The notes beneath the pieces are model-generated. The model was not told the DNA's origin, did not search any database, and saw only the letters and a list, made by a program, of their open reading frames with translations. Position numbers and translations under genes: made by a program. Positions 3,033-56,372 of a DNA stretch of 64,000 nt are shown in pieces. The DNA comes from Candidatus Nomurabacteria bacterium RIFCSPLOWO2_01_FULL_39_18 (GTDB lineage Bacteria; Patescibacteriota; Minisyncoccia; Phycocordibacterales; UBA9973). Where the stretch lies: positions 105,770 to 169,769 of the forward strand of contig MFUV01000004.1 of NCBI GenBank assembly GCA_001787005.1, given 5' to 3'. Each line of letters starts with the position of its first letter. Position 1 is the first letter of the stretch.

Positions 3033-4458
3033 CAAATACATAAAAGGTATGGCAACCCTGGAGCTACTCATAGCTTTCGTGATACTTATACTATGCACCA
3101 GCGCCGTCATTATGGTTGCCTTCGGCAATCAGTCTTTCGCGGTTGATTCAGAAACGAACAATGAAGCTATCCAAAAAGCGCAGAAAGCACTGGAAGATAC
3201 AAGAGCTCTCTCTAGGCAGGATTTTGATTTAGTAGTTTCTGACCCAAATCCCATCCAAGATGGTATCTATACTAAACAAATTATAGTTGATCCATTTGCA
3301 GCCACGGAATGCAGTAGGCAGATCGAGTCTAAAATCACATGGGATACTGATATGAATCAGCCTCAAAGTATCAACCTATTCAGTCGTGTTGGAGATATTC
3401 CGGAGGCATTAGACTTGGGGGGAGACTGCTCGGCATCGCCACCCGGACCAGGATTCACTGTAGGTGGAGGACTGAATATGGGAGGTGCTAAAACAAATGG
3501 TTTAGATGTGTTAAATAAAAAAGTTTTCATCGCTCTTCAAGATCCTCCCGGGTTAGCATATGTAGACGCCACAAACTATGCGGCTCCCGTTCAAATAATG
3601 AATAGTTACGATGTTGGTTCTGAAGTAAATGATGTAGATATTGCCCGTGATCTAGATACCGGAGAAATCTATGCATATGTTGCTAGAGAAACAAATACCA
3701 ATCAGCTTCAAATTATTGATGTGACAGATATTAATAACCCGATTTTTGTTAGAAATGTAGATTTACCAGAAGTTGGAGGTAGTTCCGAACCGGAAGGATA
3801 CCGAGTTTATTATTATAAAAATAGACTCTATATGACCACCAAAGAAACTGCAGGTCCAGAACTCCATATATTCGATGCTTCGGACCCAGTAACTTCTTTC
3901 CCAAAGTTTGGAATAAAAGAATTAAACAGAACAGTGAATGATCTTGTGGTAGTTGATCAAAATATTGGTGGCACGAATTATTCTGTCGCTTACATGGTGG
4001 CCGATTCAGATCTAAAAGAGATTGGAGTATTTGATGTTACTACTGCAGGAACTGCAAACGAAATGTTTTCACTGAATATGACAGGTGGTGCCGATGCTTA
4101 TTCTTTATTTTTCTCTTCTACATCCAAACTTTTGTATGTAGGACGACAGGCGAACGCTGGTCAAGAATTTTTTGCATATGATGCATCTAACTCCTTTTCC
4201 ACACTTATTGAAAGAGCAAAGAGAGAAGTTGGTGAACATCCTATCGGTCTTCGTATTGCTGGTGCCTATGCATACATGGTTACAAATGATAGTAATGAAG
4301 ATTTTCAAACTTACAATGCTGATCCAGCGACTGGTCTTTCACATATTCGTACTTATAATGCTTCAAATAAAGGCACAGGCATAGATTACGAAGATCAGTT
4401 TATTTATGAAACTATGGAACAAGGAAGCGAAACTCTTCAAATCTACTATGCTCCCTAG
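3010..4458 (+). CDS. large pilin-like protein with LVIVD-repeat (beta-propeller-like) C-terminal domain; putative pilus tip adhesin
   Basis: Leader MKAQSTGNKYIKG|MATLELLIAFVIL is prepilin-like; repeated YAYVA..LQIIDVTD / YSVAYMVADSDLKEIGVFDVT / AYAYMVTND motifs typical of LVIVD repeats. Confidence 0.6.
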   Translation: MKAQSTGNKYIKGMATLELLIAFVILILCTSAVIMVAFGNQSFAVDSETNNEAIQKAQKALEDTRALSRQDFDLVVSDPNPIQDGIYTKQIIVDPFAATECSRQIESKITWDTDMNQPQSINLFSRVGDIPEALDLGGDCSASPPGPGFTVGGGLNMGGAKTNGLDVLNKKVFIALQDPPGLAYVDATNYAAPVQIMNSYDVGSEVNDVDIARDLDTGEIYAYVARETNTNQLQIIDVTDINNPIFVRNVDLPEVGGSSEPEGYRVYYYKNRLYMTTKETAGPELHIFDASDPVTSFPKFGIKELNRTVNDLVVVDQNIGGTNYSVAYMVADSDLKEIGVFDVTTAGTANEMFSLNMTGGADAYSLFFSSTSKLLYVGRQANAGQEFFAYDASNSFSTLIERAKREVGEHPIGLRIAGAYAYMVTNDSNEDFQTYNADPATGLSHIRTYNASNKGTGIDYEDQFIYETMEQGSETLQIYYAP

Positions 4459-4930
4459 GTCATTAAATAAAGGTTTCACTCTTATAGAGGTCTTAATTTA
4501 CATAGTCCTTTTTTCCATTCTCATGGGAGGTGGTTTTATAACTGCATATCAAATGATTGATGGTTCCAGGAAATTGAGCGCGAAAGATACTTTACAAGAA
4601 GAGGGTAATTTTATTATGCGAAAAATCAGCTGGGCACTGACAAGTGTTGATCCTACGGTTGCCACAATACCCTCAGCAGGAACTTCCCCCAACCTTAGAG
4701 TGACGAAATACGACGGAAATCAAATTGACGTTCAACTTAATGGAACAAAAATAGAAATGAAGCAAAGTATTAATGGCAGCACTTTTCGCCCGATAACGAC
4801 TGACAATGTTTCTGTCAGTAGTCTGCAATTTACATATATAACACCAGTGGGATTAGAGCCCGCGGGTATTACGGCAGCAGCAGTTATAAATGGAATAAAC
4901 TTTACCATTACAAAATACATGAGAAAATAA
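4448..4930 (+). CDS. minor pilin-like protein (prepilin N-terminus)
   Basis: MLPRSLNKG|FTLIEVLIYIVLFSIL; ORF track starts at 4406 but the internal Met gives a canonical short leader. Confidence 0.6.
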   Translation: MLPRSLNKGFTLIEVLIYIVLFSILMGGGFITAYQMIDGSRKLSAKDTLQEEGNFIMRKISWALTSVDPTVATIPSAGTSPNLRVTKYDGNQIDVQLNGTKIEMKQSINGSTFRPITTDNVSVSSLQFTYITPVGLEPAGITAAAVINGINFTITKYMRK

Positions 4931-4931
4931 T

Positions 4932-5348
4932 GTGAAAATGATTATTCTAAATAAAAGAAGAAATAAAGGATTCATCGCTCTCATATCTGCCATTGTCATT
5001 TCGGTGATTTTGTTACTCATTGCAGCCAACTTAAGCTTGACTTCATTTTATGGCCGCTCGAATATTTTAGATTCAGAACTTAAAGAAAGAAGTTCTGCCT
5101 TGGCTGAAGCTTGCGCAGATACAGCAATTTTAAAATTAGCAAACAATAAAGATTATGTATTAGTTGCCGCTGATCACAGCATCTCCGTGGGAACGGGACA
5201 ATGTGATATTGTTTCTTATTCTTTTCCCCGAACTGGAAACATAACCATCATAACAAAAGCTAATTATAATAATACTTATTTTACTACTCTACAGATTGTA
5301 GTTAATTCAGCAGCGAACATGGCTGTTGTTTCTTGGGAAGAAATATAA
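4932..5348 (+). CDS. minor pilin-like protein
   Basis: RRNKG|FIALISAIVISVILLLIA hydrophobic pilin-like N-terminus (no Glu5). Confidence 0.5.
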   Translation: MKMIILNKRRNKGFIALISAIVISVILLLIAANLSLTSFYGRSNILDSELKERSSALAEACADTAILKLANNKDYVLVAADHSISVGTGQCDIVSYSFPRTGNITIITKANYNNTYFTTLQIVVNSAANMAVVSWEEI

Positions 5349-5457
5349 ACATCATATCAACAGTCCCCCCTTTACAAACTGGCTACTATGTAGTAGTCTA
5401 CGGGACATATTATTAATATAAATAAGTCGAATATTATAAGTAAGTTATTATAAATTT

Positions 5458-5916
5458 ATGAAAAAAATCGTTAAAAATAAGGGTTTTACGTTGATTGAGA
5501 TTTTGGTCGTTATCGCTATCATTGCCATTTTGGCAGCTATAGTGCTTGTTGCTATCAATCCTGCTAAGAGATTCCAGGATGCTAGAAACACACAACGAAG
5601 AGCAAATGTGGAATCTATCTTGAGCGCAGTTCAACAGAATATGGTTGACAATAAAGGAATCTTTACATGCGCTGGCCCAGGAGCAATTCCTGCTGTCGCA
5701 ACTGTCATGGAGGACACAGGGGGCTATGATATAGCAGAATGTATTAGTGCTTACCTTTTAGTTCTTCCGGTTGATCCACAAAATGGTTCATGGACCGACG
5801 ATGACAATTATGATACAGACTACACTATTAAACAGGATGCTACTACTAAACAAGTAACTATCAATGCTCCGTCTGCTCCCGGAGACGGTGGAGGAACAAT
5901 TTCTGTCACTCGCTAA
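5458..5916 (+). CDS. pilA: type IV major pilin (PilA-like)
   Basis: MKKIVKNKG|FTLIEILVVIAIIAILAAIVL canonical class III signal; followed by a strong terminator. Confidence 0.8.
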   Translation: MKKIVKNKGFTLIEILVVIAIIAILAAIVLVAINPAKRFQDARNTQRRANVESILSAVQQNMVDNKGIFTCAGPGAIPAVATVMEDTGGYDIAECISAYLLVLPVDPQNGSWTDDDNYDTDYTIKQDATTKQVTINAPSAPGDGGGTISVTR

Positions 5917-5935
5917 ATAAATCCGATCTAGTTGC

Positions 5936-5972
5936 AAAAATCCCTCACATGCACGCATGTGAGGGATTTTTG
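5936..5972 (+). terminator. rho-independent terminator after the pilin gene
   Basis: CCCTCACATG-CACG-CATGTGAGGG stem followed by ATTTTT. Confidence 0.8.
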
Positions 5973-6043: not shown

Positions 6044-6065
6044 CATCTACGCCATGGCGTAGATG
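6044..6065. repeat. palindrome A copy 1 (CATCTACGCCATGGCGTAGATG)
   Basis: Perfect self-complementary 20-22-mer; identical copies at 9979-9998 and 10393-10412. Confidence 0.9.
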
Positions 6066-6091
6066 TAGTTAGTATGACAAATAATTATTCT

Positions 6092-6130
6092 TTTAGAGAG
6101 TTTAGAGAGAGTCTAAGGCTCTATCTACGT
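6092..6130. repeat. partial copy of the GAGTCTAAAGCTCTATCTGCG hairpin family
   Basis: gagagtctaaggctctatctacg has 2 mismatches versus the arm of the 31263 and 35747 hairpins. Confidence 0.5.
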
Positions 6131-6172
6131 CTTTATCCCTCTTGTCCTTTTATTTTATTACTTTATTTTTCC

Positions 6173-6559
6173 CTAATTCTTACCAACTTTTCTGTTTTTA
6201 AACAATTGCACGATAAAATAAATTATAGAAATAAAAGAATATAGTCCAGCGAAAAACAATGTTAGATCTTTACCATCAAAGCTTACTATGGCTCCACTCC
6301 CACCTCCTGTTTCATATGCAAGCAGAATAGATATGAGAACATATACAAGGGTGATAAGTGAATATATTTTATACTTCTTGGTGTCAAGCACAAAAGCAAA
6401 AAGACTCACAATAAACAATACTACACCCCAGTAAAATAAATATCCAATAAATTGAGCTGTATTATAATCGAATGGACCTTTTGTATATGACGAATACCCC
6501 AAAAATATTCCCACTGATAATAAAAGTAACGAAAAACTTATTATTTTTTTCATATTCAT
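6173..6559 (-). CDS. small membrane protein (3-4 TM), hypothetical
   Basis: Hydrophobic segments; co-oriented immediately downstream of the large secreted protein. Confidence 0.45.
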   Translation of the reverse strand: MNMKKIISFSLLLLSVGIFLGYSSYTKGPFDYNTAQFIGYLFYWGVVLFIVSLFAFVLDTKKYKIYSLITLVYVLISILLAYETGGGSGAIVSFDGKDLTLFFAGLYSFISIIYFIVQLFKNRKVGKN

Positions 6560-6599
6560 ATTAACCTATTATCTAATAACCCTCTTGAAATAACAACCT

Positions 6600-9500
6600 C
6601 TATTTCAACCCTATTGTTACAGAATAAACATTTCCATCATCAAGTTTGGTAGAAATGGTATACCAATATCCGGCTGGTAATTTTTTCGTACTCCAGTTAT
6701 AGATATACTGCTGACTTTCAGGATCCCATTTGTATGTGTTGCCAGTTGTCGCAGTGTCATTATAAACAGATTCAGTGGCGGAAACATTCATTTTCGCACC
6801 CATTTGCGCACCGAGCCATATAGGCGCCGAATCTGCTTGCATAATTGTGCCATCATATTTTCTAAGTTGAAATTTAACAGGGACTGTACTGCCAGCTTTG
6901 AATATGCTTTTCTCTTGATCAATTTGATGTGCTGTATCGTTTATTGGTTGGAGAAAACCAGAGAAAACATATGGCATAGTAACGGTTCTACCTTCAGGGG
7001 CAATAATATCTGTCTCTGGGACCCCATCTCCATTTTGATCAAGTTGTAATAATAAAGCTCCCGCAGAATTCAGTGTAACTTCTGCGATTGTCTCCGGGGT
7101 CACTGGAATATCTTTAAAGATTGTTGTCGTCGTTGTTCCATTGGTTAGAACCTTTTCTGATTCATATGTGAATATACCGGTATCTATACCTTTTATTTCT
7201 ATACTCCCCATTTCGTCTTCGGGGAGGTTTAAGTACTTACCCTCACCGAATTCCATATATGATGAATTCGTAATATTTTCTTCTACATAACAAAAGTCAA
7301 AATCTGGCGGGCAAATTTTACCAGTGTGATTAGGTACTGTAGCATAATCATAAGCATCGAGAGTAACCGGTGAGTGAATTGAAATACGAAAACGATTTTC
7401 TGTGTCTATTGGTTCGTTGTCTTTTACCACATTGTCTAATGCAACATCTCCAGCTTCAATTATTGATTTAATAAAATTATTCAGTGAATCGACTTCTAAA
7501 ATATCTTTATGTTCTCTGTTGAGTCTCAATATAGTATTATAATTTTTAAAATCTACCCAATATTTTTCCGCATTTCCAAGAAAATTCATATATTGCGCAC
7601 TAGGCACAACTACAGTTCCATCCCCATCCGAGGTAAAACGAGGTCTTTCGTCTAATGCATACGGAGGACATGTTACAGCTCCGGGTGGGCAAGACACTGA
7701 TTTTGGGTAGTACTCCATACTTGCGACAGTTTCGAGTCCCCAGCCAGCCACTTCAATCACTCGCATGTCTTCAGGCGGAGTCCATGCGTCTATATTGTCG
7801 TGCAAACTTTCTGCTTGAGAAAATAAATCTTGTGAGAGATTGATAGGCAAATTTGTTTCACCAATCAATGGATTGGTTCGACCTTCATTTCCAAAAAGAA
7901 AATCTTTGTACTCGTCATAGGAATCAATTACGCCACCAAAAGCTTGAACCATTTGTGTTGTAATTCCCGAAGGAATTGCATTATCCACGAATGTCGCAGG
8001 TGAAGCATCGACATGATTTATATATTCTTTACTTGGTAAAAGTCCATAAGCCCCGAGCATATTTCGTCCAAGTTCACGAGCGTGAATTTCGTCCATTAGC
8101 CAGCCACTCAAAATTCTCTGGTCATATCCATGGAGTATTGCTGGTACTGCCTTTGCTGTGCCAATTTCTGGCACGGCAACTAAAATTAATACATCTATAT
8201 TATCAATTAGATTATTTATTCCCGCAACCTTGTCGTCTTGTAATTTTTTCAAAAGCGTTTTAGCTAAAAGTCCACCGTTGCTGTGAGCAACAATGGTAAC
8301 TTTGCCGTTTTTTGATTCCGAGTCGACCAATGATTGTAGAGTATCGATTAACGAGACTGTTTCATTTTGATATTTTGTTCCATTGCTCACAATGTCTTCA
8401 ATGTCTTGTCGCCAGTCATAGGCATATTCTTTCCATTTTTTTATTTTTTGATCAGTAACCAATTGATCCATAGTTTCAGAAAAACTTTTATAGATATTTT
8501 GTCCCAAAGCCCCTGCTGGAAATGGCGTGTTTGTCTCTTTTATGATATCTCTTGTATAAATATCTAGATTCATGCTTGTTCCATCAGGATTCAAATACAA
8601 ATCTTCCACATCGCTGTTTGTATTTGGTTCCCATAACTGGTCTTCATCTCCATTATCTTGCTCGTACAATCTAGAACCCATTATTCCCGGCAAAAAGAGA
8701 ACATTGGAGAAACAGGTGGTGCAAGTCGGAACTTTCCAGCCATCTGGTATTTTCCAAGGGAAATTGTCGGTTACATTGCCAAAGCTAATCGCAGTATCAC
8801 AAATAAAATCATTATTTATATCATTACATCCCTCCTCTGGAGTATCGTGGTTGCGATAATAGTTACCACCTATTGGCATTGGTTGATAAATGAGATTTGC
8901 AGAATTACTAAAGGAAGAAATATTCGGAATGGACATGAAATTATTATTGTAAACTTTATTATTGTTTACATTTGAACTCATTGCGACACCTATATTAGTT
9001 ACAGAAATTGTGTTGTTGCGCACCGTTGTTCTTTGTGTATTCTGAGTTAAAAGTATTCCTGTGCTAATAATGTTTACACCAGGAATATATCCAGCTGTAT
9101 TGGTTACCACATTGCCATCAATGAGATTATCAAAATCATTAAAGGAAAGAAAAAATCCTAAACCGAAGCCACGTGTTTCGTTGTTTAAGAATCGGCTATT
9201 TGTTGTTTGAAACACACCAATCCCACTATCAAAACCTTCAATAATTAAATTTTTTACTGTAATGTTTTTTCTAAAAGCAATATTAATTCCACTTCCAACC
9301 CCAAATCCATTATTCCATTTCACTATTTTTCCATTACCGTCGAGCGTAATATTGTCATTCACAATTTGTATTACTTCGAACACATCCTGTGTCATGGTGC
9401 AAGTAAGGGTGACTTGGTTCCATATGCCAAATGTAGAGCAATCTCCGCCCGTAGTATCATTACGAATGGTTTTTGTACTAGGTTGAGTTTTAATGAAAAT

Positions 9501-9902
9501 TAAATGAGGTTCGTAGCCATTTAAAGTAAAAGTTGTATTTGGGGATTCATTTGCAGAACGTTGCACCACATTTTCCAATGAATCAATATAAAAATAAAGG
9601 TCTTGGTTTGGAAGATTTTCCAATAAAATAGTTATTTCTTCTTTGCCTGCTATTGGAATAAATACCACAGATGATCCTAGCGATATTTCTTTTATAATTT
9701 CAGTTTCGGGGCTAGAAGAAATAGTGATATCTAAAAAGTCTTGTATAAATGGAAGATTGGCTGTTTCCGTTGTCGAGGCAGACTCATTTAGGAGAATAGT
9801 ATCTTCAGCATTTACTGTATGCCCACCCCAAAAAGACACCAAAATGAGGACCACCACCCCAAATTTCAATGCATTTTTCAGTACAGTCATAAATATCTCC
9901 AT
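6600..9902 (-). CDS. large secreted multidomain protein: signal peptide + right-handed beta-helix repeats + LCAT-like lipase domain + C-terminal domains
   Basis: Signal peptide MTVLKNALKFGVVVLILVSFWGGHTVNA; NITLDGNGKIV / NITVKNLIIEG type beta-helix repeats; FLPGIMGSRLY and VTIVAHSNGGLL (GxSxG-type) motifs as in the LCAT family. ORF-track start 9980 overlaps a palindrome and was rejected in favour of MEIFM/MTVLK. Confidence 0.65.
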   Translation of the reverse strand: MEIFMTVLKNALKFGVVVLILVSFWGGHTVNAEDTILLNESASTTETANLPFIQDFLDITISSSPETEIIKEISLGSSVVFIPIAGKEEITILLENLPNQDLYFYIDSLENVVQRSANESPNTTFTLNGYEPHLIFIKTQPSTKTIRNDTTGGDCSTFGIWNQVTLTCTMTQDVFEVIQIVNDNITLDGNGKIVKWNNGFGVGSGINIAFRKNITVKNLIIEGFDSGIGVFQTTNSRFLNNETRGFGLGFFLSFNDFDNLIDGNVVTNTAGYIPGVNIISTGILLTQNTQRTTVRNNTISVTNIGVAMSSNVNNNKVYNNNFMSIPNISSFSNSANLIYQPMPIGGNYYRNHDTPEEGCNDINNDFICDTAISFGNVTDNFPWKIPDGWKVPTCTTCFSNVLFLPGIMGSRLYEQDNGDEDQLWEPNTNSDVEDLYLNPDGTSMNLDIYTRDIIKETNTPFPAGALGQNIYKSFSETMDQLVTDQKIKKWKEYAYDWRQDIEDIVSNGTKYQNETVSLIDTLQSLVDSESKNGKVTIVAHSNGGLLAKTLLKKLQDDKVAGINNLIDNIDVLILVAVPEIGTAKAVPAILHGYDQRILSGWLMDEIHARELGRNMLGAYGLLPSKEYINHVDASPATFVDNAIPSGITTQMVQAFGGVIDSYDEYKDFLFGNEGRTNPLIGETNLPINLSQDLFSQAESLHDNIDAWTPPEDMRVIEVAGWGLETVASMEYYPKSVSCPPGAVTCPPYALDERPRFTSDGDGTVVVPSAQYMNFLGNAEKYWVDFKNYNTILRLNREHKDILEVDSLNNFIKSIIEAGDVALDNVVKDNEPIDTENRFRISIHSPVTLDAYDYATVPNHTGKICPPDFDFCYVEENITNSSYMEFGEGKYLNLPEDEMGSIEIKGIDTGIFTYESEKVLTNGTTTTTIFKDIPVTPETIAEVTLNSAGALLLQLDQNGDGVPETDIIAPEGRTVTMPYVFSGFLQPINDTAHQIDQEKSIFKAGSTVPVKFQLRKYDGTIMQADSAPIWLGAQMGAKMNVSATESVYNDTATTGNTYKWDPESQQYIYNWSTKKLPAGYWYTISTKLDDGNVYSVTIGLK

Positions 9903-9978
9903 ATTAGCAGTATTTCCTAAAACGGCAACTGGGGGCCAGTCTGTAGTAGAGTTAGGGTTAATAAAATCTATAATTACC

Positions 9979-9998
9979 ATCTACGCCATGGCGTAGAT
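9979..9998. repeat. palindrome A copy 2 (ATCTACGCCATGGCGTAGAT)
   Basis: Perfect palindrome exactly between the stop of the 9998-10366 gene and the promoter region of the lipase gene. Confidence 0.9.
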
Positions 9999-10366
9999 TA
10001 GTTTGTATATGATTTAGCTAACTTAAATGTTTTAAATTCTTTCTGCAGGCCAATTCTTTTCAGATAAGCAAGAAAATCCACCGGCAGTGGCGAAGGCCCA
10101 ACCCAGACACTTTTCTGAATCATGACAAAATCAAAATTCTTAAGCTGTCGACGAAACCAATCTCGCTCTTTTTTCCTCGTATACGGAACATCGTACATTA
10201 AAAGTAGGTTCTTTGGCGCATCTTTTTTAAAATCAGAAACAAAAGAACGAAGATACAGCCGTTTGTTTTTTTTAGTATTTTTAAATTTTTTCGAATCACT
10301 GAAACTTGGCAAACCTAGAATATTCACCGGCACACCTTTGTAATAAAATTTCTTTCTTCTCGTCAT
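9998..10366 (-). CDS. small basic protein with Cas2/PaaX_C-like domain (paralog of 29178-29717 C-terminal half)
   Basis: LLLMYDVPYTRKKERDWFRRQLKNFDFVMIQKSVWVGP aligns with WRLVMYDLPIRFKKARDAFRFKLKDLGFFQFQKSAWIYP of the 179-aa paralog; the beta-YDV...R.Q.SV pattern resembles Cas2/VapD. Confidence 0.45.
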   Translation of the reverse strand: MTRRKKFYYKGVPVNILGLPSFSDSKKFKNTKKNKRLYLRSFVSDFKKDAPKNLLLMYDVPYTRKKERDWFRRQLKNFDFVMIQKSVWVGPSPLPVDFLAYLKRIGLQKEFKTFKLAKSYTN

Positions 10367-10392
10367 AAATCGATTATAGCACTTTTTCGTTA

Positions 10393-10412
10393 ATCTACGC
10401 CATGGCGTAGAT
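10393..10412. repeat. palindrome A copy 3 in the divergent region between the Cas2-like gene and recG
   Basis: Identical 20-mer ATCTACGCCATGGCGTAGAT. Confidence 0.9.
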
Positions 10413-10446
10413 GTGGATATAGTGGAAATAATGATATAATCTTTGA

Positions 10447-12666
10447 GTGGAACTTAGCGATAGACTTGAAATAAAATTCCGCTTAGATGTAAACCAAAAA
10501 AGGGCTTTAAATAGGCTCAAACTTTTCTCTATTGCCGACCTTTTGTACCACTTTCCTGTCAGATATTCTCATATTAGTGAAATAAAACCCATTAGCCAGT
10601 TAGTGGCGGGAGAATTTGCGACGGTCTATGGAAGATTTTGGAGTCCGGACATAAAAAGAGGATACAAAAGCAAAGTTTTGCGAGCAGAAGGAGAAGTGAT
10701 AGACGAAACTGGAAAAATAAAAGTTGTCTGGTTTAATCAAGCTTACATCGCGAAAATGATACATTCTGGACAATTCGTAGAACTAACCGGAAAAGTGATG
10801 GAAAGTAAAAGGGGCAAATATCTAGCAAACCCTGAATTCAAAAAGATTGATTTACTGCCGATTGATACACATGATTCTCTATTTAATTTTGAAAAGAAAA
10901 AACAGAGCGAAGTCTTTGGTTTTCCTGTTTATGCAGAGACCCGTGGCATAACTTCTAAATGGTTCTACCATGCAATAGAGAAAATATTGCGAGAAAAAAC
11001 GTTGGATAGAATAGGAGACTACATTCCAGAGGACATTCTTAAAAAATACAACCTCCCCAGCCTGAGGACCGCGCTCATTTGGATTCACAAGCCGAAAAAT
11101 TCGCGAGACGCTGAAAGCGCCAAGAAAAGATTCGCTTTCGAAGAAGTTTTTTGCATTCAGCTGGAGCGCCAGCATGACAAGTTTGAATACAAAAAAAATA
11201 AATCTTTTCAGATTATTCCAGATGAGAAAAACGTTAAGAAATTTTTAGAACGTTTTCCTTTCGAACCAACAAATTCCCAAAAGAAATCTATCGAGGTAGT
11301 CTTGGACGATATGGCGAAGAGTTTCCCCATGTCCCGCCTCCTAGAGGGTGATGTCGGATCTGGAAAGACAGCCGTTGCGGCCACAGCAAGCTATGTGGCA
11401 GTACAACAACGTCCCAATGGACAGACTTTTGGCAACTTACAAGTCGCTTACATGGCACCCACGGAGATCCTGGCGGCACAACACTTCGAATCTTTCATAG
11501 AATATTTTAAATACCTACCGATTAACATCGGGCTCATCACCGGATCAGGTTGCAGAAAATTCCCTTCTAAAGTTAACCCCCTCGGATGGACGAATATATC
11601 CCGCGCGCAGCTTTTGAAATGGGTAGCAAATGGAGAAATTCCCATATTGATAGGCACGCATGCTTTGATCCAAAAAACGGTTAAATTTAAAAATCTGGCG
11701 CTATGCGTGGTGGATGAACAGCACAGATTCGGTACAGCGCAGAGAAGAAAGTTGGTCAGGAAGGATGCAAAAGGAAATATGAGCGCTCCACACTTGCTCT
11801 CGATGACAGCTACCCCTATCCCCCGCACCTTGGCGCTGACCATCTATGGCGACCTAGACCTCTCTCTCCTCGATGAAATGCCTGCTGGCAGAAAGAAAAT
11901 AATAACAGAGATAATCACGCTGAAGGAGCGCGAAGAAACTTATGAAAAAGTCAGACAAGAATTAAAAGCTGGCAGACAGCTCTATGTGATCTGCCCGAGA
12001 ATTTTCGAACCGGATGAAGAGTACCCCTACCCGACCTCCCCCTATATAGGGGGAGGTGCCAAAGGCAGAGGGGGTATAGAAATGAAAGCCGTTACCACTG
12101 AAGCAAAACGACTCAAAAAAGAAGTTTTCAGAGAATACGAAATAGGTGTACTGCACAGCAAGATGAGCAAGGAAAAAAAAGAAAAAGTGATGCAGGAATT
12201 TACGGAAGGCAAAATAAATATTCTCTGCGCCACATCAGTGGTGGAAGTAGGAGTAAATGTGCCGAATGCCACCCTTATAATAATAGAAGGGGCGGAACGA
12301 TTCGGCTTAGCCCAGCTTCACCAGCTTCGCGGACGAGTGCTGAGGAGCACGCATCAAGCGTATTGTTACATCTTCGCTGACGCCAAAAGCGACAAAACTA
12401 TCGCCAGGTTAAAAGCTCTTAAAACCGCCCAAAACGGCTTCGAGCTCGCAGAGCTAGACCTCTCGCTCCGCGGTGCCGGAGAGCTCGGAGGAACGAAACA
12501 ATGGGGCATCACCGACCTCGGCATGGAAGCAATTAAAAATATAAAAATGGTTGAAGCCGCCCGCACCGAAGCTGTCCGCTTGATAGGAGAAGACCCAGAA
12601 CTCACTAAATATCCCCTACTGAAACAGAAAGTCCATCAAAAAGCTGGGGAATTTCATTTTGAATAA
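10447..12666 (+). CDS. recG: ATP-dependent DNA helicase RecG (GTG start)
   Basis: Wedge/OB N-terminus, DVGSGKT Walker A, DEQHRFG, helicase C motifs; TATAAT 9 nt upstream of the GTG. Confidence 0.9.
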   Translation: MELSDRLEIKFRLDVNQKRALNRLKLFSIADLLYHFPVRYSHISEIKPISQLVAGEFATVYGRFWSPDIKRGYKSKVLRAEGEVIDETGKIKVVWFNQAYIAKMIHSGQFVELTGKVMESKRGKYLANPEFKKIDLLPIDTHDSLFNFEKKKQSEVFGFPVYAETRGITSKWFYHAIEKILREKTLDRIGDYIPEDILKKYNLPSLRTALIWIHKPKNSRDAESAKKRFAFEEVFCIQLERQHDKFEYKKNKSFQIIPDEKNVKKFLERFPFEPTNSQKKSIEVVLDDMAKSFPMSRLLEGDVGSGKTAVAATASYVAVQQRPNGQTFGNLQVAYMAPTEILAAQHFESFIEYFKYLPINIGLITGSGCRKFPSKVNPLGWTNISRAQLLKWVANGEIPILIGTHALIQKTVKFKNLALCVVDEQHRFGTAQRRKLVRKDAKGNMSAPHLLSMTATPIPRTLALTIYGDLDLSLLDEMPAGRKKIITEIITLKEREETYEKVRQELKAGRQLYVICPRIFEPDEEYPYPTSPYIGGGAKGRGGIEMKAVTTEAKRLKKEVFREYEIGVLHSKMSKEKKEKVMQEFTEGKINILCATSVVEVGVNVPNATLIIIEGAERFGLAQLHQLRGRVLRSTHQAYCYIFADAKSDKTIARLKALKTAQNGFELAELDLSLRGAGELGGTKQWGITDLGMEAIKNIKMVEAARTEAVRLIGEDPELTKYPLLKQKVHQKAGEFHFE
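12022..12077. repeat. nested palindromic element inserted in-frame in recG
   Basis: TACCCCTACCCGACCTCCCCCTATATAGGGGGAGG...AGGGGGTA; encodes EYPYPTSPYIGGGAKGRGGIE; near-identical copy at 39869-39920. Confidence 0.85.
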
Positions 12667-13428: not shown

Positions 13429-13502
13429 TCCGTCCTCTTGGATTCGAACCAAGGACCCCAGAGGTATAAGCTCTGTGCTCTAACCAACTGAGCTAAGGAC
13501 GG
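13429..13502 (-). tRNA. tRNA-Ile (anticodon UAU)
   Basis: Manual fold: acceptor CCGTCCT/AGGACGG, D-arm GCTCAGTTGGTTAGAGC, anticodon stem CAGAG/CTCTG with loop CTTATAC, T-arm CTTGGTTCGAATCCAAG, discriminator A; CCA not encoded. Confidence 0.8.
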
Positions 13503-16471: not shown

Positions 16472-16577
16472 GGTATTTTTATATTATTTATTAAAAGTAT
16501 AATTTCGACAAAAAAGCAAAACCTAATTATCCATGATTATAGTACTTAACGCATTAATAGCAAAGTTGTCTTGTATC

Positions 16578-16977
16578 TGTGGAGATGGGGGAAATCGAAT
16601 CCCCGTGCAGAAGGTTATTGCTAAGAAGTCTACATACATAGCGCGCTTGTGGGTTTAAATTAAAAAATTTAGAAACGAGCCAAATATTTTTTAATCGATT
16701 CTCTTTGTTTTGCTGTGACATCGAGAAAGTCGCCACAGCTATCCCGATAATATTATGCCCGCTCTTATATATCGGAAGTCTATAAGAGAGACATCAGTTA
16801 GGCGTAAGCCGAGACTGAAGCGAAAGCAAAGTCCGCCTCACCGAAGTAAGGAGAAATTGAAGCTTTCACTTTAGAAGCTAATTTTGCAATTAACATTTAG
16901 ACAAATTTTTACGAGATTATGTCTATGCTCGGTATGCATCAATAACAAATGACCAACTGTCTATGCCTTGCATCCCC
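16578..16977 (-). ncRNA. ssrA: tmRNA (ssrA)
   Basis: 5' GGGGAUG pairs with 3' CAUCUCC-ACA; T-arm GGGGAUUCGAUUUCCCC; internal ORF ...ADFAFASVSAYA-UAA; lies directly downstream of smpB. Confidence 0.7.
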
Positions 16978-21112: not shown

Positions 21113-21240
21113 CCCGTTAGAAGTAGGAAATCTTTAGATTTCCGTAGTTAAATTTATTAATAACAACTATAAGAAACTGGTCCATTATAACATTTCTGTA
21201 ACTTTAATTAACTAAATGACTTCTAACGGGATCCATATCT
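21104..21240. repeat. MITE-like element with terminal inverted repeats ATCCCGTTAGAAGT ... ACTTCTAACGGGAT
   Basis: 14-bp perfect inverted repeats about 95 bp apart; second copy at 40568-40670; the left arm contains the ATG of the downstream gene. Confidence 0.65.
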
Positions 21241-21505
21241 ATAAAAGTAAGAAAAAATCCGCCCGAAGCGGAATCCTTCTTAGGACTATTTCCAATGTAT
21301 TACCGTAGCTCAAAGCTAGGTGGGTGTCAGACAAGCTTGACCAAGGTCAAACCCGATCGAGACTCCCTAAAATTAGTGTTCTAGGTAATAATTGGAAATA
21401 ACCCTACTTTCAGTATAGCAAAATTATGGCGAGGAGCAACTGGACAGAAAGAATTTTTTGTTTCTGAATTAATTATAGAATTTTTGTCGTGATCCTGCTT
21501 AAGAA

Positions 21506-21541
21506 TTGTACATATATACGCTATAGCGTATATATGTACAA
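21506..21541. repeat. 36-bp perfect palindrome TTGTACATATATACGCTATAGCGTATATATGTACAA
   Basis: Self-complementary; directly abuts the stop codon of the last CYTH gene. Confidence 0.85.
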
Positions 21542-22084
21542 TTAAAAACGCATATTAAACCAGTCTAATTCGTATTCTTTTTTAATTAAAACTCTCTCCC
21601 CTTCACCAATACTTTTGTGATCTTCCAATCCGAGTATTTTTATTGCTTCTTGCACATGTTCATGACTTTTCCCTTCAATTTCCAGATAAGCGGGCATCCC
21701 TGGGTACTGATCCAGGTCAAATTGCCAATCCTTTAGGAGGAAAGATGCACGATCTTTTTCTTGATGGGCATAGTGCTCTATCCCGACATTTTCAAAAAGC
21801 TTCCCGGCAAGGATAGCATCACCAACACTTATATTTATCTCGTCAGAATGTCTGGTATTGCCTGTTATTTCTGGTAATGACTTCCAACTTATTTCAGACT
21901 TCCCACCCGTACTAGTTCGAATTCTTAAATACCATGGATCGTCGCCTTCATGGGTCAAACCTTTGGGTCCGTACCAATCGATAACAAGTCTTGTGTTCTG
22001 TATCTCTTTCGCGCCAAGTGCTTTTAACTTTTCTTTTACTTCTTCCTTATCTACATTTAAAACTTTCGTTTCAATTTCGTGCAT
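21542..22084 (-). CDS. CYTH-domain protein (triphosphate tunnel metalloenzyme / CyaB-like)
   Basis: N-terminal HEIETKVL (ExExK), LRIR and C-terminal YLEIE motifs. Confidence 0.7.
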   Translation of the reverse strand: MHEIETKVLNVDKEEVKEKLKALGAKEIQNTRLVIDWYGPKGLTHEGDDPWYLRIRTSTGGKSEISWKSLPEITGNTRHSDEINISVGDAILAGKLFENVGIEHYAHQEKDRASFLLKDWQFDLDQYPGMPAYLEIEGKSHEHVQEAIKILGLEDHKSIGEGERVLIKKEYELDWFNMRF

Positions 22085-28487: not shown

Positions 28488-29096
28488 ATGAAAAGACTTG
28501 GATTTAACATAGTGCTTCTTGGGATGATAGCTTCCGGCAAAGAAACACAGGCTAATATTTTAAAAAAGAAATACGCGCTAAAATTCGTGGAGTCTGGTGT
28601 GTATTGGCGAAAACTTTTGAAAGAAAAAAGTGTTGATGGAGACTGGGTAAGAAGAACAACTGGAAAAGGAAGCCCAGCCCCGGTTGCTTTGATGAAAAAA
28701 TTCCTAGTTAGAGAGATTGCAAAAAAACCGAAGAATAAAGATTTGCTTTTTTTGGGCAATCCTAGATTGAAACCTGAAGCACAACTTTTGAAAAAGATAT
28801 TGAGTAAAAAGAGACAAGATTTTTTCGCTTTATACATCTCTCTGCCCGACAAAGAAGTTTATAAACGATCTCTGAAAAGGAGAACTGGAAAAATGAAAGG
28901 AATTTATAAGGTATTTGATACAAAAAAAATTATCGGCACTAGAATCAAGTGGCACAAAGATCAAGTGGGTAAAACAGTGAAATATTTTCAAAGCCTAAAA
29001 AAATTAAAAATAATCAATGGCAATCAACCCATCCCTAAAGTTACCAAGGATGTCCTAAAAGAAATTGAGGAGTATAAAAAACGGAGAGAAAATTAA
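28488..29096 (+). CDS. adenylate/nucleoside-monophosphate kinase-like paralog with degenerate P-loop
   Basis: LLGMIASGKETQANIL (Gly-to-Glu in GKGT); basic C-terminus. Confidence 0.45.
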   Translation: MKRLGFNIVLLGMIASGKETQANILKKKYALKFVESGVYWRKLLKEKSVDGDWVRRTTGKGSPAPVALMKKFLVREIAKKPKNKDLLFLGNPRLKPEAQLLKKILSKKRQDFFALYISLPDKEVYKRSLKRRTGKMKGIYKVFDTKKIIGTRIKWHKDQVGKTVKYFQSLKKLKIINGNQPIPKVTKDVLKEIEEYKKRREN

Positions 29097-29124
29097 CAGG
29101 AACGTATGTTTAAAAACTTCTGTT

Positions 29125-29162
29125 CTGTTGTGAAATCACGCATATGCGTGATTTCACAACAG
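29125..29162. repeat. 38-bp perfect palindrome CTGTTGTGAAATCACGCATATGCGTGATTTCACAACAG (putative operator)
   Basis: Self-complementary; TGTGA..TCACA half-sites; 15 nt downstream of the wHTH gene stop. Confidence 0.85.
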
Positions 29163-29177
29163 AGAGTTTAAATAAAA

Positions 29178-29717
29178 TTAAAGTCCAAAGTGAACTTTTA
29201 ATTTTGTTTCATCTAAAACTTTACTTACTTCTAAAATCTCTATATGCTTACGAACTCCATAAAAATCCGCTACGAACAGAATCTCCCCTTCGCATGGATA
29301 TGGATAGATCCAAGCACTCTTTTGAAATTGGAAAAATCCTAAATCTTTTAATTTGAATCTGAAAGCATCACGAGCTTTCTTGAATCTTATAGGAAGATCA
29401 TACATAACTAGACGCCACTTACCATCCCATTTTTTAGAGTTCTTGATTACAACTTCATCAATTAAGATTTCTCGTAACTTATTTTCCCCCTTTGGAGTGA
29501 TTATATATTTTTCTTTACCCTCTACTCTCACATGTCTAACAAATCTATATCTCCTCAAGCCGTGAAAAATCTGTTGTGTTTTTCGATTATTGTTGATGAT
29601 CGGCGATAATTTTTCTCCCAAAGCAACAGCGCAAAGTAAGCTTTGCGCTAGATTCATACCCTCCCCACCAGAGCTAAAAAATTTCTTTAATTTTGCTAAA
29701 TGTTCTAGTTTAACCAT
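29178..29717 (-). CDS. putative transcriptional regulator: N-terminal winged-helix + C-terminal Cas2/PaaX_C-like domain
   Basis: wHTH-like GLRRYRFVRHVRVEGKEKYIITPKGENKL; C-terminal WRLVMYDLPIRFKKARDAFRFKLKDLGFFQFQKSAWIYP. Confidence 0.5.
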   Translation of the reverse strand: MVKLEHLAKLKKFFSSGGEGMNLAQSLLCAVALGEKLSPIINNNRKTQQIFHGLRRYRFVRHVRVEGKEKYIITPKGENKLREILIDEVVIKNSKKWDGKWRLVMYDLPIRFKKARDAFRFKLKDLGFFQFQKSAWIYPYPCEGEILFVADFYGVRKHIEILEVSKVLDETKLKVHFGL

Positions 29718-29718
29718 A

Positions 29719-29754
29719 TGTTGTGAATTTTAGCATATGCGAAATTTCACCACA
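29719..29754. repeat. imperfect palindrome TGTTGTGAATTTTAGCATATGCGAAATTTCACCACA abutting the regulator start codon
   Basis: Shares TGTTGTGAA / GCATATGC / TTTCAC..ACA with the 29125-29162 palindrome. Confidence 0.7.
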
Positions 29755-39868: not shown

Positions 39869-39920
39869 TACCCCCTCCTTTCTCCTCCCCCTATATAGGG
39901 GGAGGCTGGGTAGGGGTATT
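39869..39920. repeat. nested palindromic element, intergenic copy (rplD stop / rplW RBS)
   Basis: TACCCCTACCCAGCCTCCCCCTATATAGGGGGAGG..AGGGGGTA (minus sense); supplies AAAGGAGG upstream of the rplW ATG; matches the recG insert. Confidence 0.85.
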
Positions 39921-55008: not shown

Positions 55009-55842
55009 ATGACATCTTTTGACACAATATATCAGGGAATTATCAAAAAAATAATGGACGAAGGTATTGAAGAGCTGAATGAACGAACGGGTCATAAGAC
55101 AAAAGCTCTGCCCGGAATCACATTTTCTCTTGATATTGAAAAAGATGGTTTCCCCATTCTCACGCTTCGCAAGCAACCGTTAAAATCTCCAATCGCCGAA
55201 CAGGTTTGGTTTGTACAGGGAGAGAAAGATACAACATTTCTGCGAAAATTTACCAAAATGTGGGACCCTTTTATGGAACCCGATGGCACACTGCCATTCT
55301 CCTACGGCTGGAGGTGGCGCAACCACTTCGGTCGCAATCAGCTCGGAAACACAATCGAGCTTCTGGAAAAAGAACCAAGTTCGCGCCATGGGGTGATCAT
55401 CACTTGGGATCCAAAAGACGATGGACATGGCGGAACACCTAAGAAAAATATCCCTTGCCCTTTTGCCTATACTATAAATATAATCGGTGGCAGACTGCAC
55501 ATGCACAACATTGTCCGCTCTAACGACATGATACTTGGCTGTCCATTTGATGTTTTTGGATTTGCTCTGCTACAATGCATGATCGCGCAGAGACTCGGCG
55601 TTCGTCCGGGAATTTACACCCACACAATATCCAATGCCCATGTTTATGACAATCACTACGAGGGAGCAAGGGAAATAATAAAAAGAACGAATGATCACAA
55701 AAAGGTAGAATTGCATCTGCCAAAAGATTCATTAAAACGAGCAGAGCAAAAAGATGAAGATTTGGTGGGAGAAATTCTGGCAGATTTACAAGCTCAATAT
55801 AACCCCCTTCCGCCAATCAGTGGACTAGAAATTGCTTTATGA
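55009..55842 (+). CDS. thyA: thymidylate synthase
   Basis: IPCPFAYT (Cys nucleophile region), RSNDMILGCPFDVFGFALLQCMIAQ. Confidence 0.85.
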   Translation: MTSFDTIYQGIIKKIMDEGIEELNERTGHKTKALPGITFSLDIEKDGFPILTLRKQPLKSPIAEQVWFVQGEKDTTFLRKFTKMWDPFMEPDGTLPFSYGWRWRNHFGRNQLGNTIELLEKEPSSRHGVIITWDPKDDGHGGTPKKNIPCPFAYTINIIGGRLHMHNIVRSNDMILGCPFDVFGFALLQCMIAQRLGVRPGIYTHTISNAHVYDNHYEGAREIIKRTNDHKKVELHLPKDSLKRAEQKDEDLVGEILADLQAQYNPLPPISGLEIAL

Positions 55843-56372
55843 TTTCCCTTATTGCGGCAATTGGCAGAAATAATGAACTTGGTAAAGGAAATGATTTAGT
55901 CTGGAAATTTCCTGCTGATCAAAAGTTTTTTCGAGAGACCACTTCTGGACATCCGATAATTATGGGACGAAAGACTTTCGAATCCCTCGGGCGTAGCCTT
56001 ACGGGCGAGCCTATCGGCAGGCCCCTGCCGAATCGACAAAATATAGTAATTACTAGAGACAAAAACTATCTACGGAATGGCCTGCCTGCGCAGGCAGGCG
56101 TAGATGTTGTACATTCATTGGACGAAGCATTAAAATTGGTTTCTAAGGAAGAAGAGGTTTTTATAATCGGCGGCGCGGAAATTTTCAGACAAGCCATGTC
56201 CACTGCTGACAGGCTCTACATTACCCACTTTGACGCGGAAGATAAGGGTGCGGATGTGTTTTTCCCAGAAATTGTTCCGGTAGTCTGGAATGAAATATCC
56301 CACCAAGAATTCAAACCGGACTCAGAAAATCCAATCCCTTATATTTTTTCAGTCTATGAAAAATTTACTTGA
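55839..56372 (+). CDS. folA: dihydrofolate reductase
   Basis: MISLIAAIGRNNELGKGNDLVWKFPADQKFFRETT... Confidence 0.85.
   Translation: MISLIAAIGRNNELGKGNDLVWKFPADQKFFRETTSGHPIIMGRKTFESLGRSLTGEPIGRPLPNRQNIVITRDKNYLRNGLPAQAGVDVVHSLDEALKLVSKEEEVFIIGGAEIFRQAMSTADRLYITHFDAEDKGADVFFPEIVPVVWNEISHQEFKPDSENPIPYIFSVYEKFT

Follow-up and report, generated by a model that had tools for sequence, protein, structure and literature searches.

We analysed a 64,000-nucleotide stretch of the genome of Candidatus Nomurabacteria bacterium RIFCSPLOWO2_01_FULL_39_18 (contig MFUV01000004.1, forward-strand positions 105,770 to 169,769; this whole 64-kb stretch is called the window below), and within it a 20-bp perfect palindrome, ATCTACGCCATGGCGTAGAT (PAL), that stands on both sides of a small gene for a Cas2-like protein of 122 amino acids (Cas2L). 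An original prediction, made from the letters alone, had placed three identical palindromes around a secreted lipase operon and this small gene. Exact matching located the three copies, at 6045–6064, 9979–9998 and 10393–10412; scanning the window with up to three mismatches returned no PAL beyond these three, and 100 shuffles of the window gave no match at all. The predicted placement of the copies relative to the lipase operon, the Cas2L gene and recG likewise agrees with the gene map, in which the minus-strand order is PAL 10393, the 122-residue gene, PAL 9979, the lipase open reading frame (ORF), a gene for a membrane protein of 128 amino acids and PAL 6045. Comparison loci carry labels consisting of L and three digits.

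The Cas2L gene (9998–10366, minus strand) encodes a protein of the Cas2/PaaX_M fold with a tyrosine, Y62, at a position that covaries with the palindrome, as described below. PAL 10393, a putative operator, precedes the Cas2L ATG by 26 nt and the recG GTG by 34 nt and occupies the −35 position of the Cas2L promoter, whose TATAAT −10 box (10373–10378, minus strand) is 14 nt from the palindrome; because this box is only 6 nt from the ATG, the Cas2L mRNA would be near-leaderless. The divergent neighbour, recG (an ORF at 10447–12666, plus strand, with 82% DNA identity to the recG of L028), has TGATATAAT at 10432–10440 in its promoter, ahead of the GTG at 10447, and the −35 position of that promoter abuts PAL 10393. 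The gene at the recG position varies by species, being PGK, PolA, a P-type ATPase or htpX elsewhere. The middle copy, PAL 9979, shares 1 nt with the stop codon of Cas2L and precedes the lipase gene, about 77 nt before the likely start of the latter (M27, 9902). The remaining copy, PAL 6045, marks the distal edge of the lipase unit, in a convergent spacer 108 nt past the stop of the 128-residue gene and opposite a pilin gene; a −10 box was sought at the canonical offset from this copy and none was present, and no gene 5′ end faces it.

The longest ORF of the lipase gene comprises 1126 codons from a start at 9980, and M27, at 9902, is followed by a signal-peptide-like segment. The protein (6600–9902, minus strand) matches LCAT (3.1e-12) and NosD (2.3e-7, a beta-helix) in Pfam and, at its C-terminus, PxKF in NCBIfam (2.8e-29). 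Given these three domains and the N-terminus, 'secreted lipase-like' is a fair label for what appears to be a secreted beta-helix, LCAT-like alpha/beta-hydrolase and PxKF protein. The second gene of the unit, an ORF at 6173–6559 (minus strand), encodes a multi-pass membrane protein without a Pfam family above cut-off, and its 5′ part is 80% DNA-identical to L104, where it again lies 3′ of a lipase homologue. Lipase homologues also lie 3′ of a PAL in L104 and L046, the latter without Cas2L within 8 kb. The GC content of the lipase unit is 35–38%, below that of core genes; this is no evidence of transfer, as the adjoining pilin genes and Cas2L are also low. Three successive type IV pilin-like genes with the prepilin leader GFTLIE (4406–5916) adjoin the unit, and a strong terminator hairpin at 5935–5972 belongs to the pilin gene that faces it.

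Against Pfam, Cas2L matches PaaX_M ("PaaX central Cas2-like domain", E = 1.1e-12) and CRISPR_Cas2 (E = 1.1e-6), and in its AlphaFold model residues 52–120 have the beta-alpha-beta-beta-alpha-beta topology of Cas2, preceded by an N-terminus with a basic arm, a beta-hairpin (residues 7–14) and a short helix. Neither the model nor the Pfam matches contained a winged helix-turn-helix (wHTH) or other helix-turn-helix. The family, conserved in Nomurabacteria/Paceibacteria, has 1834 database relatives, of which the best 120 are all about 120 amino acids long and 70–99% identical; Y58, D59 and P61 are invariant, and Asp59, which forms a Y-D motif with Y58 where beta1 ends, corresponds to the Asp that binds metal in Cas2. 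A paralog of 179 amino acids is encoded at 29178–29717 (minus strand) and is 38% identical to Cas2L over the Cas2-like part. It matches PaaX_M (Pfam, 2.4e-20), its AlphaFold model has helices (residues 23–56) and a wing (60–73) that make up a wHTH ahead of the Cas2-like domain, and its best Foldseek match is PaaX (8a39, E = 1.2e-4). The original prediction had called the 122-residue gene Cas2/PaaX_C-like and its paralog wHTH-containing; the Cas2 fold holds according to Pfam and AlphaFold, the PaaX domain in question is PaaX_M rather than PaaX_C, and the wHTH is present in the 179-residue paralog and missing from the 122-residue protein. The ligand-binding domain PaaX_C was absent from both in Pfam, both ending with the Cas2-like domain, and NCBIfam PaaX_trns_reg scored 12.6 and 19.9 bits for the two proteins against a cut-off of 264.55.

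The genomic surroundings of the two genes are those of neither phenylacetate regulators nor CRISPR systems: their neighbours are htpX, gatC, the lipase gene, recG, secY and adk, with no paa genes; no CRISPR array was present in the 64-kb window, and no Cas1 family was found among the called genes within 4 kb on either side in L180–L187 or among the annotated neighbours of Cas2L. With respect to HUH/Y1 proteins, Pfam, NCBIfam and fold matches were to Cas2 or PaaX exclusively, and no H-hydrophobic-H motif occurs among the invariant residues of Cas2L.

The association of PAL with Cas2L was followed in about 97 loci, namely 17 genome loci and 80 metagenomic loci fetched by protein similarity (58–87% identity). 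Cas2L lies between two PALs in all 17 genome loci with enough flank and in nearly all of the 80 metagenomic loci; the exceptions are few, and mostly contig ends beside the gene. The upstream PAL is found 39–64 nt before the aligned Cas2L start, and the downstream one 3–62 nt (mostly 3–40) after its end, where it often shares a base with the TAA stop codon. In 52 of 54 unique Cas2L flanks, a TATAAT-like box lies 12–14 nt from the upstream PAL, with the ATG about 7 nt further on, and this fixed spacing places PAL at the −35 position of a near-leaderless promoter. The same spacing (12/13 nt) recurs before the lipase homologue of L104 and before a 207-residue cargo gene (L023, L153). An asymmetric form of the upstream copy, ATCTCAGC..., recurs among Cas2L loci, its stem broken yet kept.

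Scanning one genome per species for the exact 20-mer, we found PAL in 94 stretches from 62 assemblies, almost all of them Nomurabacteria, Paceibacterota or Parcubacteria metagenome-assembled genomes. A single copy is present in 37 assemblies, two in 15, three in eight and five or six in two. The two matches assigned to Actinomycetota and Bacteroidetes are on contigs of 2 kb that were probably mis-binned. Copies with one to four mismatches are scarce (17 in 753 kb of flanks), and viral contigs contained no PAL. The genome scan thus addressed a doubt attached to the original prediction, that the palindrome might be a common genome-wide element of the repetitive extragenic palindromic (REP) type: with 1–6 exact copies per genome and few near-matches in the flanks, we rejected PAL as a high-copy REP-like repeat. 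We also rejected its identification as parS, as two related loci contain the canonical parS core, GTTTCACGTGAAAC, as a separate sequence, and a phage or mobile-element origin, given the lack of PAL in viral contigs, the lack of any PHROG match and PADLOC results confined to Cas2 models. No known RNA family in Rfam coincides with the palindromes.

The palindrome and the protein vary together. In 1.16 Mb of collected loci, we counted 134 PALs with the centre CATG, 82 with TATA, 10 with the outer form ATTT...AAAT and nine with half-changed centres, and the two PALs around one Cas2L gene were TATA/TATA in 36 cases, CATG/CATG in 26 and mixed in five. Across 52 non-identical Cas2L proteins, all 28 TATA loci have Glu or Asp at residue 62 and all 24 CATG loci have His, Ser, Gln or Tyr there, corresponding to a mutual information of 1.0 bit. 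This residue directly follows the invariant Y-D-[IV]-P, three residues past Asp59, and is the sole column that predicts the centre without exception. About 12 switches of site type are required on a neighbour-joining tree from which columns 57, 62 and 63 were left out, a number that is inflated by Cas2L being too short for good tree resolution; from these repeated changes it follows that the association is not one old split. The rule is also obeyed in the divergent ATTT/ATAT clade, and most extra sites in Glu-type loci are likewise TATA (five distinct ones, compared with three that are half-changed). Residue 13, in the N-terminal hairpin, is associated with base pair 3/18 (Ser or Pro with C, Arg or Lys with A or T), but more weakly, and this link is confounded by clade structure.

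In Cas2 dimers, the metal-binding aspartates face each other near the two-fold axis, and the reading of G:C by His and of A:T by Glu is ordinary hydrogen-bond direct readout. The symmetric base changes and the position of the specificity residue would therefore be explained by a Cas2L dimer sitting on duplex PAL with the two axes coincident. Taken together, the bracketing at about 97 loci, the fixed distance to the −10 box and the residue–base covariation make PAL very probably the cognate DNA target of Cas2L. The original prediction of operator sites for this regulator family accordingly survives as far as cognate sites are concerned, on the strength of these three observations, and is too narrow as a description of simple operators, which would not explain the many copies in convergent spacers and coding genes.

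An analogous arrangement, with a different palindrome, surrounds the 179-residue paralog, as had been predicted. In the window, a perfect 40-bp palindrome (29124–29163) lies 14 nt past the stop of the paralog, and a degenerate copy (29719–29754) abuts its ATG with a TAAAAT −10-like box in the proximal arm. The layout was seen in six genomes, the window and five relatives (58–76% identical): the upstream palindrome of about 36 bp (TGTTGTGAAnTTnnGCATATGC...) has a proximal arm that stops one base before the ATG and holds the TAAAAT box, and the downstream one, 14–35 nt past the stop, is perfect over 36–42 bp in four of the six genomes (including L175, L176 and L179). Arm variants are common to both copies within one genome. 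For more distant PaaX_M paralogs (L028, L032, L033, L049, L091 and L092), the surrounding 120 bp contained no perfect palindrome whose arms reach 6 bp, and the bracketing rule is therefore established for two subfamilies only. In the stretch 28488–29754 of the window, the paralog and an extra adenylate-kinase-like gene on the opposite strand are inserted between secY and adk of the spc ribosomal-protein operon; this placement is common to L175 and L176, and in other relatives the paralog lies between a PBP/S11 peptidase gene and SMC.

The most frequent setting of Cas2L is htpX (an M48 peptidase) or a TPM-domain gene, PAL, Cas2L, PAL, gatC and gatA, and the ancestral context is htpX-PAL-Cas2L-PAL-gatCA. 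Extra genes stand beside Cas2L in 11 loci, which represent nine distinct arrays including the window, and each array has exactly one extra PAL, whereby each accessory unit is closed by a PAL at both ends. On this pattern of one PAL per extra unit, the three copies in the window are the borders of two adjacent units, Cas2L itself and the lipase/membrane-protein operon. At least eight unrelated inserts are bounded in this way: besides the lipase operon (window, L104), they include a P-loop kinase-like protein (L124), two different alpha/beta-hydrolases (L136, L147), a sigma-factor-like protein (L145), a GNAT gene interrupted by an insertion sequence (L140) and two proteins with function unassigned, one of 156 amino acids (L123/L059) and one of 206–207 (L023/L114, L047 and L107). 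The original suggestion that the module controls a lipase is consequently too narrow, and the lipase is a lineage-specific passenger rather than the purpose of the module.

Relatives without a cassette have a single PAL, which at 72–76% DNA identity aligns with each of the two PALs flanking an insert, a result that is partly an artefact of PAL being the only alignable spacer sequence at this divergence. The 207-residue gene lies upstream of Cas2L in L023 and L114 and downstream in L047 and L107, and terminal PALs at convergent genes occur in the window (6045) and in L136. Some cargo genes start within about 10 nt of a PAL and must then be co-transcribed with the gene upstream. Contigs sharing one identical Cas2L protein (24 read, eight places shown) exhibited no cassette polymorphism, from which cassette turnover appears to be slow. 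Half-changed centres (CTATGG, CCATAG) at cassette junctions were considered as crossover products and dropped, as they are not derivable by one central crossover.

PAL also occurs away from Cas2L. About 30 of the 105 exact copies lie inside real genes, far from the gene ends, encoding the peptides LRHGVD or STPWRR in two open frames. The host genes encode DHFR and a ComFC-like phosphoribosyltransferase (six species each), UvrC (five species), TatD (two species) and RsmI-like, class-V aminotransferase (IscS-like), TruB and TsaD-family proteins (one species each). Within each gene family the palindrome is at the same codon, in proteins only 52–87% identical, and in PAL-bearing families just 8–21% of the codons for invariant amino acids are identical in all sequences, synonymous sites being saturated. 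Invariance at 20 of 20 positions is itself circular as evidence, the loci having been found by exact match; what stands outside this circularity is that the exact 20-mer recurs at one codon position in 4–7 diverged species. In DHFR and TatD, PAL replaces sequence with no change in length, and TatD proteins read HLRHGVDD with PAL and HIRNNPDD in site-free orthologues, at least nine base changes apart. The window contains a decayed example in its own DHFR gene (55839–56372): at 56068–56105 (plus strand), ATCTACGgaATGG...CGTAGAT, identified by a six-orthologue codon alignment and a pattern search, has two substitutions and is split by an in-frame 18-nt palindrome, CCTGCCTGCGCAGGCAGG, whereas the six orthologues keep PAL intact at the same codon.

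The 55 intergenic PALs that do not adjoin Cas2L are distributed over 17 convergent, 32 tandem and six divergent spacers, and about 30 of 75 intergenic PALs form the core of longer palindromes with arms that differ from site to site; L049 and L054, from one genome, have the same 36-bp extended PAL. As an 8-bp stem with a 4-nt loop, PAL has a folding energy of −6.8 to −8.6 kcal/mol as DNA (z −3.7 to −6.2). In a terminator scan PAL 9979 passed solely on the strand opposite the genes, and some extended PALs are followed by T runs, many are not, and no coding copy is. The window holds one such extended form, a 40-bp perfect palindrome (21504–21543) with the PAL variant ATATACGCTATAGCGTATAT as its core, at the end of a 390-bp stretch without ORFs or Rfam matches (21113–21543). 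In L157 this variant flanks a Cas2L relative, and in L079 it belongs to a three-palindrome cluster. It differs from the CATG type, the one that matches the Cas2L of this genome (Y62), a hint that the genome encodes another Cas2L-type paralog elsewhere.

Several further observations concern palindromes and their neighbours. In L079, one spacer (3342–3491) contains four different palindromes, three of them PAL variants 41–42 bp apart (ATCTACGCCATGGCGTAGAT, AATTACGCCATGGCGTAATT and ATATACGCTATAGCGTATAT), and L120 has two copies of another PAL variant at its end. The isoleucyl-tRNA synthetase (IleRS) gene of three species is preceded by an exact PAL at a distance of 53–60 nt, and that of a fourth (L040) at about 500 nt; in L015, L064 and L076 the palindrome comes just after a conserved 'GTGGACGAG-TTTTTT' terminator-like motif, and the IleRS of L076 has an inserted histidine-phosphatase domain. 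A family of about 590 amino acids with an N-terminal CxxC...CPxC and no Pfam match adjoins PAL in L015, L018, L032, L033, L057, L068 and L069, sometimes as tandem gene pairs with PAL between them. A second perfect-palindrome family, CCTCCCCCTATATAGGGGGAGG, occurs at 12034–12057 (in recG) and 39884–39905 (in the rplD-rplW spacer), as well as in L020 and L025; its recG copy lies within a 14-residue in-frame insertion relative to the RecG of L028, between flanks that are 82% DNA-identical. A third, CCTGCCTGCGCAGGCAGG, is found in the window at 56081–56098, 52621, 32868 and 35398 and also in L010, L012 and L037; in DHFR it constitutes a six-residue insertion, GLPAQA, and degenerate copies lie in a DEAD-box helicase gene (LSAQAGG) and rplF (PARAGG). 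In this lineage, short GC-rich palindromes seem to insert into housekeeping genes without disrupting the reading frame. The ribosomal-protein cluster of the window additionally contains three repeat pairs of 52–62 nt (31257–31308/35740–35791, 32574–32632/41795–41853 and 38032–38093/38597–38658), two of them hairpin-forming and 85–88% identical, and the window encodes a tmRNA (16577–16977, minus strand, 113.5 bits) and a tRNA (13429–13502, minus strand).

With confidence a little above even, we favour a reading in which Cas2L, a descendant of PaaX-type repressors, is a dimer that binds duplex DNA specifically at its palindrome, regulates its own promoter from the upstream PAL and marks or insulates neighbouring PAL-bounded units, here the lipase operon and probably recG. 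Cas2L would have lost the helix-turn-helix and the ligand-binding C-terminal domain of its ancestors and would bind PAL as a symmetric dimer through the Cas2-like domain, the loop after beta1 with residue 62 reading the central CATG or TATA on the dyad and the basic N-terminal beta-hairpin arms reading the outer ATCTACGC half-sites. With a PAL at −35, Cas2L would control its own synthesis and, in the window, probably that of RecG as well; each transcription unit in the variable region beside Cas2L would carry one more PAL, and the bound protein would set or insulate the expression of the unit, serving as an operator 5′ of it and, on the 3′ side, as a roadblock or a partner in looping. The support computed for this proposal is the architecture, the −10 spacing, the fold and the covariation; we infer the binding as a dimer, the choice between repression and activation, and whatever effect there may be on the lipase.

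A number of observations weigh against this proposal. PAL 6045 faces no gene start, PALs are more often in convergent than in divergent spacers, the opposite of what a set of operators would show, and about 30 of 105 exact copies are inside coding genes. Cas2L as modelled is without a recognised DNA-binding domain, and its N-terminal 50 residues are of low confidence in the model. The invariant Tyr58-Asp59 retains the Cas2 metal-binding position, and may have a catalytic role. Extended arms are needless for a dimer site and suggest the formation of a hairpin or cruciform. Accessory genes appear, from the comparison of loci, to be gained, lost and permuted along with a PAL, which hints at recombination. 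The convergent, in-gene and extended copies are beyond a plain operator model.

The hint of recombination can be developed into the main alternative, in which PAL serves for site-specific recombination or integration, with Cas2L as the recognition (possibly catalytic) subunit, so that cassettes are inserted, excised and reshuffled and the lipase operon was captured; we regard this as rather unlikely, although it best explains the single extra PAL per cassette, the permuted cassette order, the terminal PALs that face no gene and the retained Asp59. The nine distinct arrays of unrelated genes with exactly one extra PAL each, the alignment of a single PAL to both insert-flanking PALs (~72–76% DNA identity), the position of the 207-residue cassette on either side of Cas2L, the terminal PALs at convergent genes, the 36-bp extended copy shared within one genome and the location of Asp59 at the Cas2 metal site, near the centre-reading residue 62, would all be expected from such a system. 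However, no recombinase, Cas1 or transposase is conserved among the annotated neighbours of the module, no protein of this fold is known to recombine DNA, and contigs with an identical Cas2L lack cassette polymorphism; moreover, the half-changed PALs at junctions misfit a simple centre crossover between pure types, the insert borders are partly an alignment artefact, and the PAL-13-nt-TATAAT layout of several cargo genes fits regulation equally well. A stronger form, in which Cas2L and PAL constitute a previously unrecognised gene-cassette platform of candidate phyla radiation (CPR) bacteria, is in our view similarly doubtful. Under it, a stand-alone Cas2L would read PAL through the loop beside its metal-binding Asp and cut or nick it on the dyad; segments as large as the lipase operon would be inserted, excised and reshuffled, with one PAL added per insertion and without Cas1 or IntI; and this machinery would also keep the copies in housekeeping genes identical, as secondary sites. 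The likeness to integrons (IntI, attI, attC) is one of form only: variable, mostly co-oriented, unrelated genes adjoin a conserved gene, with one palindromic site each and a permutable order. In contrast to integrons, no tyrosine recombinase is present among the annotated neighbours, PALs are identical perfect 20-mers whereas attC sites are imperfect and conserved in structure, and the cassettes lie on both sides of Cas2L, several with a promoter of their own.

It is less probable still that PAL is a low-copy selfish or domesticated REP/REPIN-type element mobilised or maintained by Cas2L as a single-copy, RAYT-like nuclease. RAYT genes are single-copy, vertically inherited and flanked by two co-evolving short palindromes that have more copies elsewhere (PMC3116915, PMC3337134, PMC5581495). 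Cas2L, too, is a single-copy, vertically inherited gene between two copies of its co-evolving palindrome, PAL copies are scattered through intergenic and coding DNA and are nested in, or at the apex of, other palindromes, and in this genome recG, DHFR and a helicase gene contain in-frame insertions of other short palindrome families. Unlike RAYTs, however, Cas2L has a Cas2 fold and no HUH/Y1 motif; PAL has 1–6 exact copies per genome rather than tens to hundreds, is absent from viral contigs, and is a perfect palindrome conserved over 62 species, often inside genes. Its presence at the same codon of DHFR, ComFC-like and UvrC genes across species, amid saturated synonymous sites, points to long-term constraint rather than turnover, and the DHFR and TatD copies replace sequence with no length change. 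Equally improbable, we believe, is a role as an RNA or single-stranded DNA hairpin (a 3′-end, terminator or processing signal) that Cas2L binds or cuts in the manner of a Cas2/VapD-type ribonuclease, although members of the Cas2 and VapD families are RNases. The stable 8-bp stem and 4-nt loop, the enrichment of PAL after gene 3′ ends and in convergent spacers, the longer site-specific stems of many intergenic copies (some then followed by T runs) and the cargo ORFs starting about 10 nt from PAL, which make it intercistronic RNA, agree with this view. Against it, the covarying positions 9 and 12 are in the loop, where pairing is needless and symmetric change fits a two-fold dimer on duplex DNA; the Cas2L transcript would not include the upstream PAL, provided that its promoter is the conserved TATAAT; the recurrent variant ATCTCAGC... 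breaks the stem and is still retained; the layout recurs around the wHTH paralog, which surely binds DNA; and no Rfam family occurs at PAL.

Among known systems, PaaX (PDB 8a39, 3l09; Pfam PaaX, PaaX_M, PaaX_C) is the closest to the palindrome-binding Cas2L dimer that we favour, through the common PaaX_M domain. PaaX represses its own promoter at a palindromic operator by occluding RNA polymerase, and its middle domain is a dimerisation motif (PMC9493321). Cas2L differs in the lack of a wHTH, a C-terminal ligand domain and nearby paa genes; in its site, a compact 20-bp perfect palindrome compared with TGATTC-N27-GAATCA; in its specificity, which appears from the covariation to map to the Cas2-like domain (residue 62); and in the bracketing of its gene on both sides, the PAL-bounded accessory units and the conserved copies in coding genes. 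With Cas2, which is a dimer on duplex DNA within the Cas1-Cas2 integrase, it shares the ferredoxin-like beta-alpha-beta-beta-alpha-beta fold and the Y-D motif, with the metal-binding Asp, at the end of beta1; in contrast, Cas2L has no cas1 or CRISPR array nearby, Cas2 itself is not sequence-specific, and the PAL "repeats" are 400 bp to 4 kb apart with genes between them, unlike those of CRISPR. The ParB-parS and Tus-Ter systems have few near-identical sites per genome, some of them coding, and the autoregulated gene of the binder lies beside or contains a site. PAL resembles these in its few copies, near-identity across species, coding occurrences and adjacent binder gene; it differs from parS, whose canonical core is separately present. 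In a reduced genome, Rickettsia palindromic elements likewise lie within housekeeping genes without breaking the frame (PMC1779305, PMC10969869), but they are insertions of 100–150 bp, whereas PAL is 20 bp long, length-neutral in DHFR and TatD, and has a cognate protein. The searchable literature contained no paper linking PaaX with Cas2 or describing such palindromes in CPR genomes.

If Cas2L does bind PAL as proposed, it would be the first case of a Cas2-type domain, rather than a helix-turn-helix, as the source of DNA sequence specificity, with a putative code (Glu62 for TATA, His62 for CATG) that bears on the relationship between PaaX-type regulators and Cas2. The pair is among very few predicted regulator–site pairs in the largely unculturable Nomurabacteria, and its site is base-exact in at least 62 species. 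The conserved in-frame copies in DHFR, UvrC, ComFC-like and TatD genes point to selection on DNA sequence in coding regions, which is beyond current models of this family. The cassette platform, if true, would be a functional cousin of CRISPR repeat duplication and integron cassettes. The variable spot by htpX/gatCA, with its changing set of accessory and host-interaction genes (the secreted lipase among them), offers a handle on how such genes are gained and controlled in these tiny genomes.

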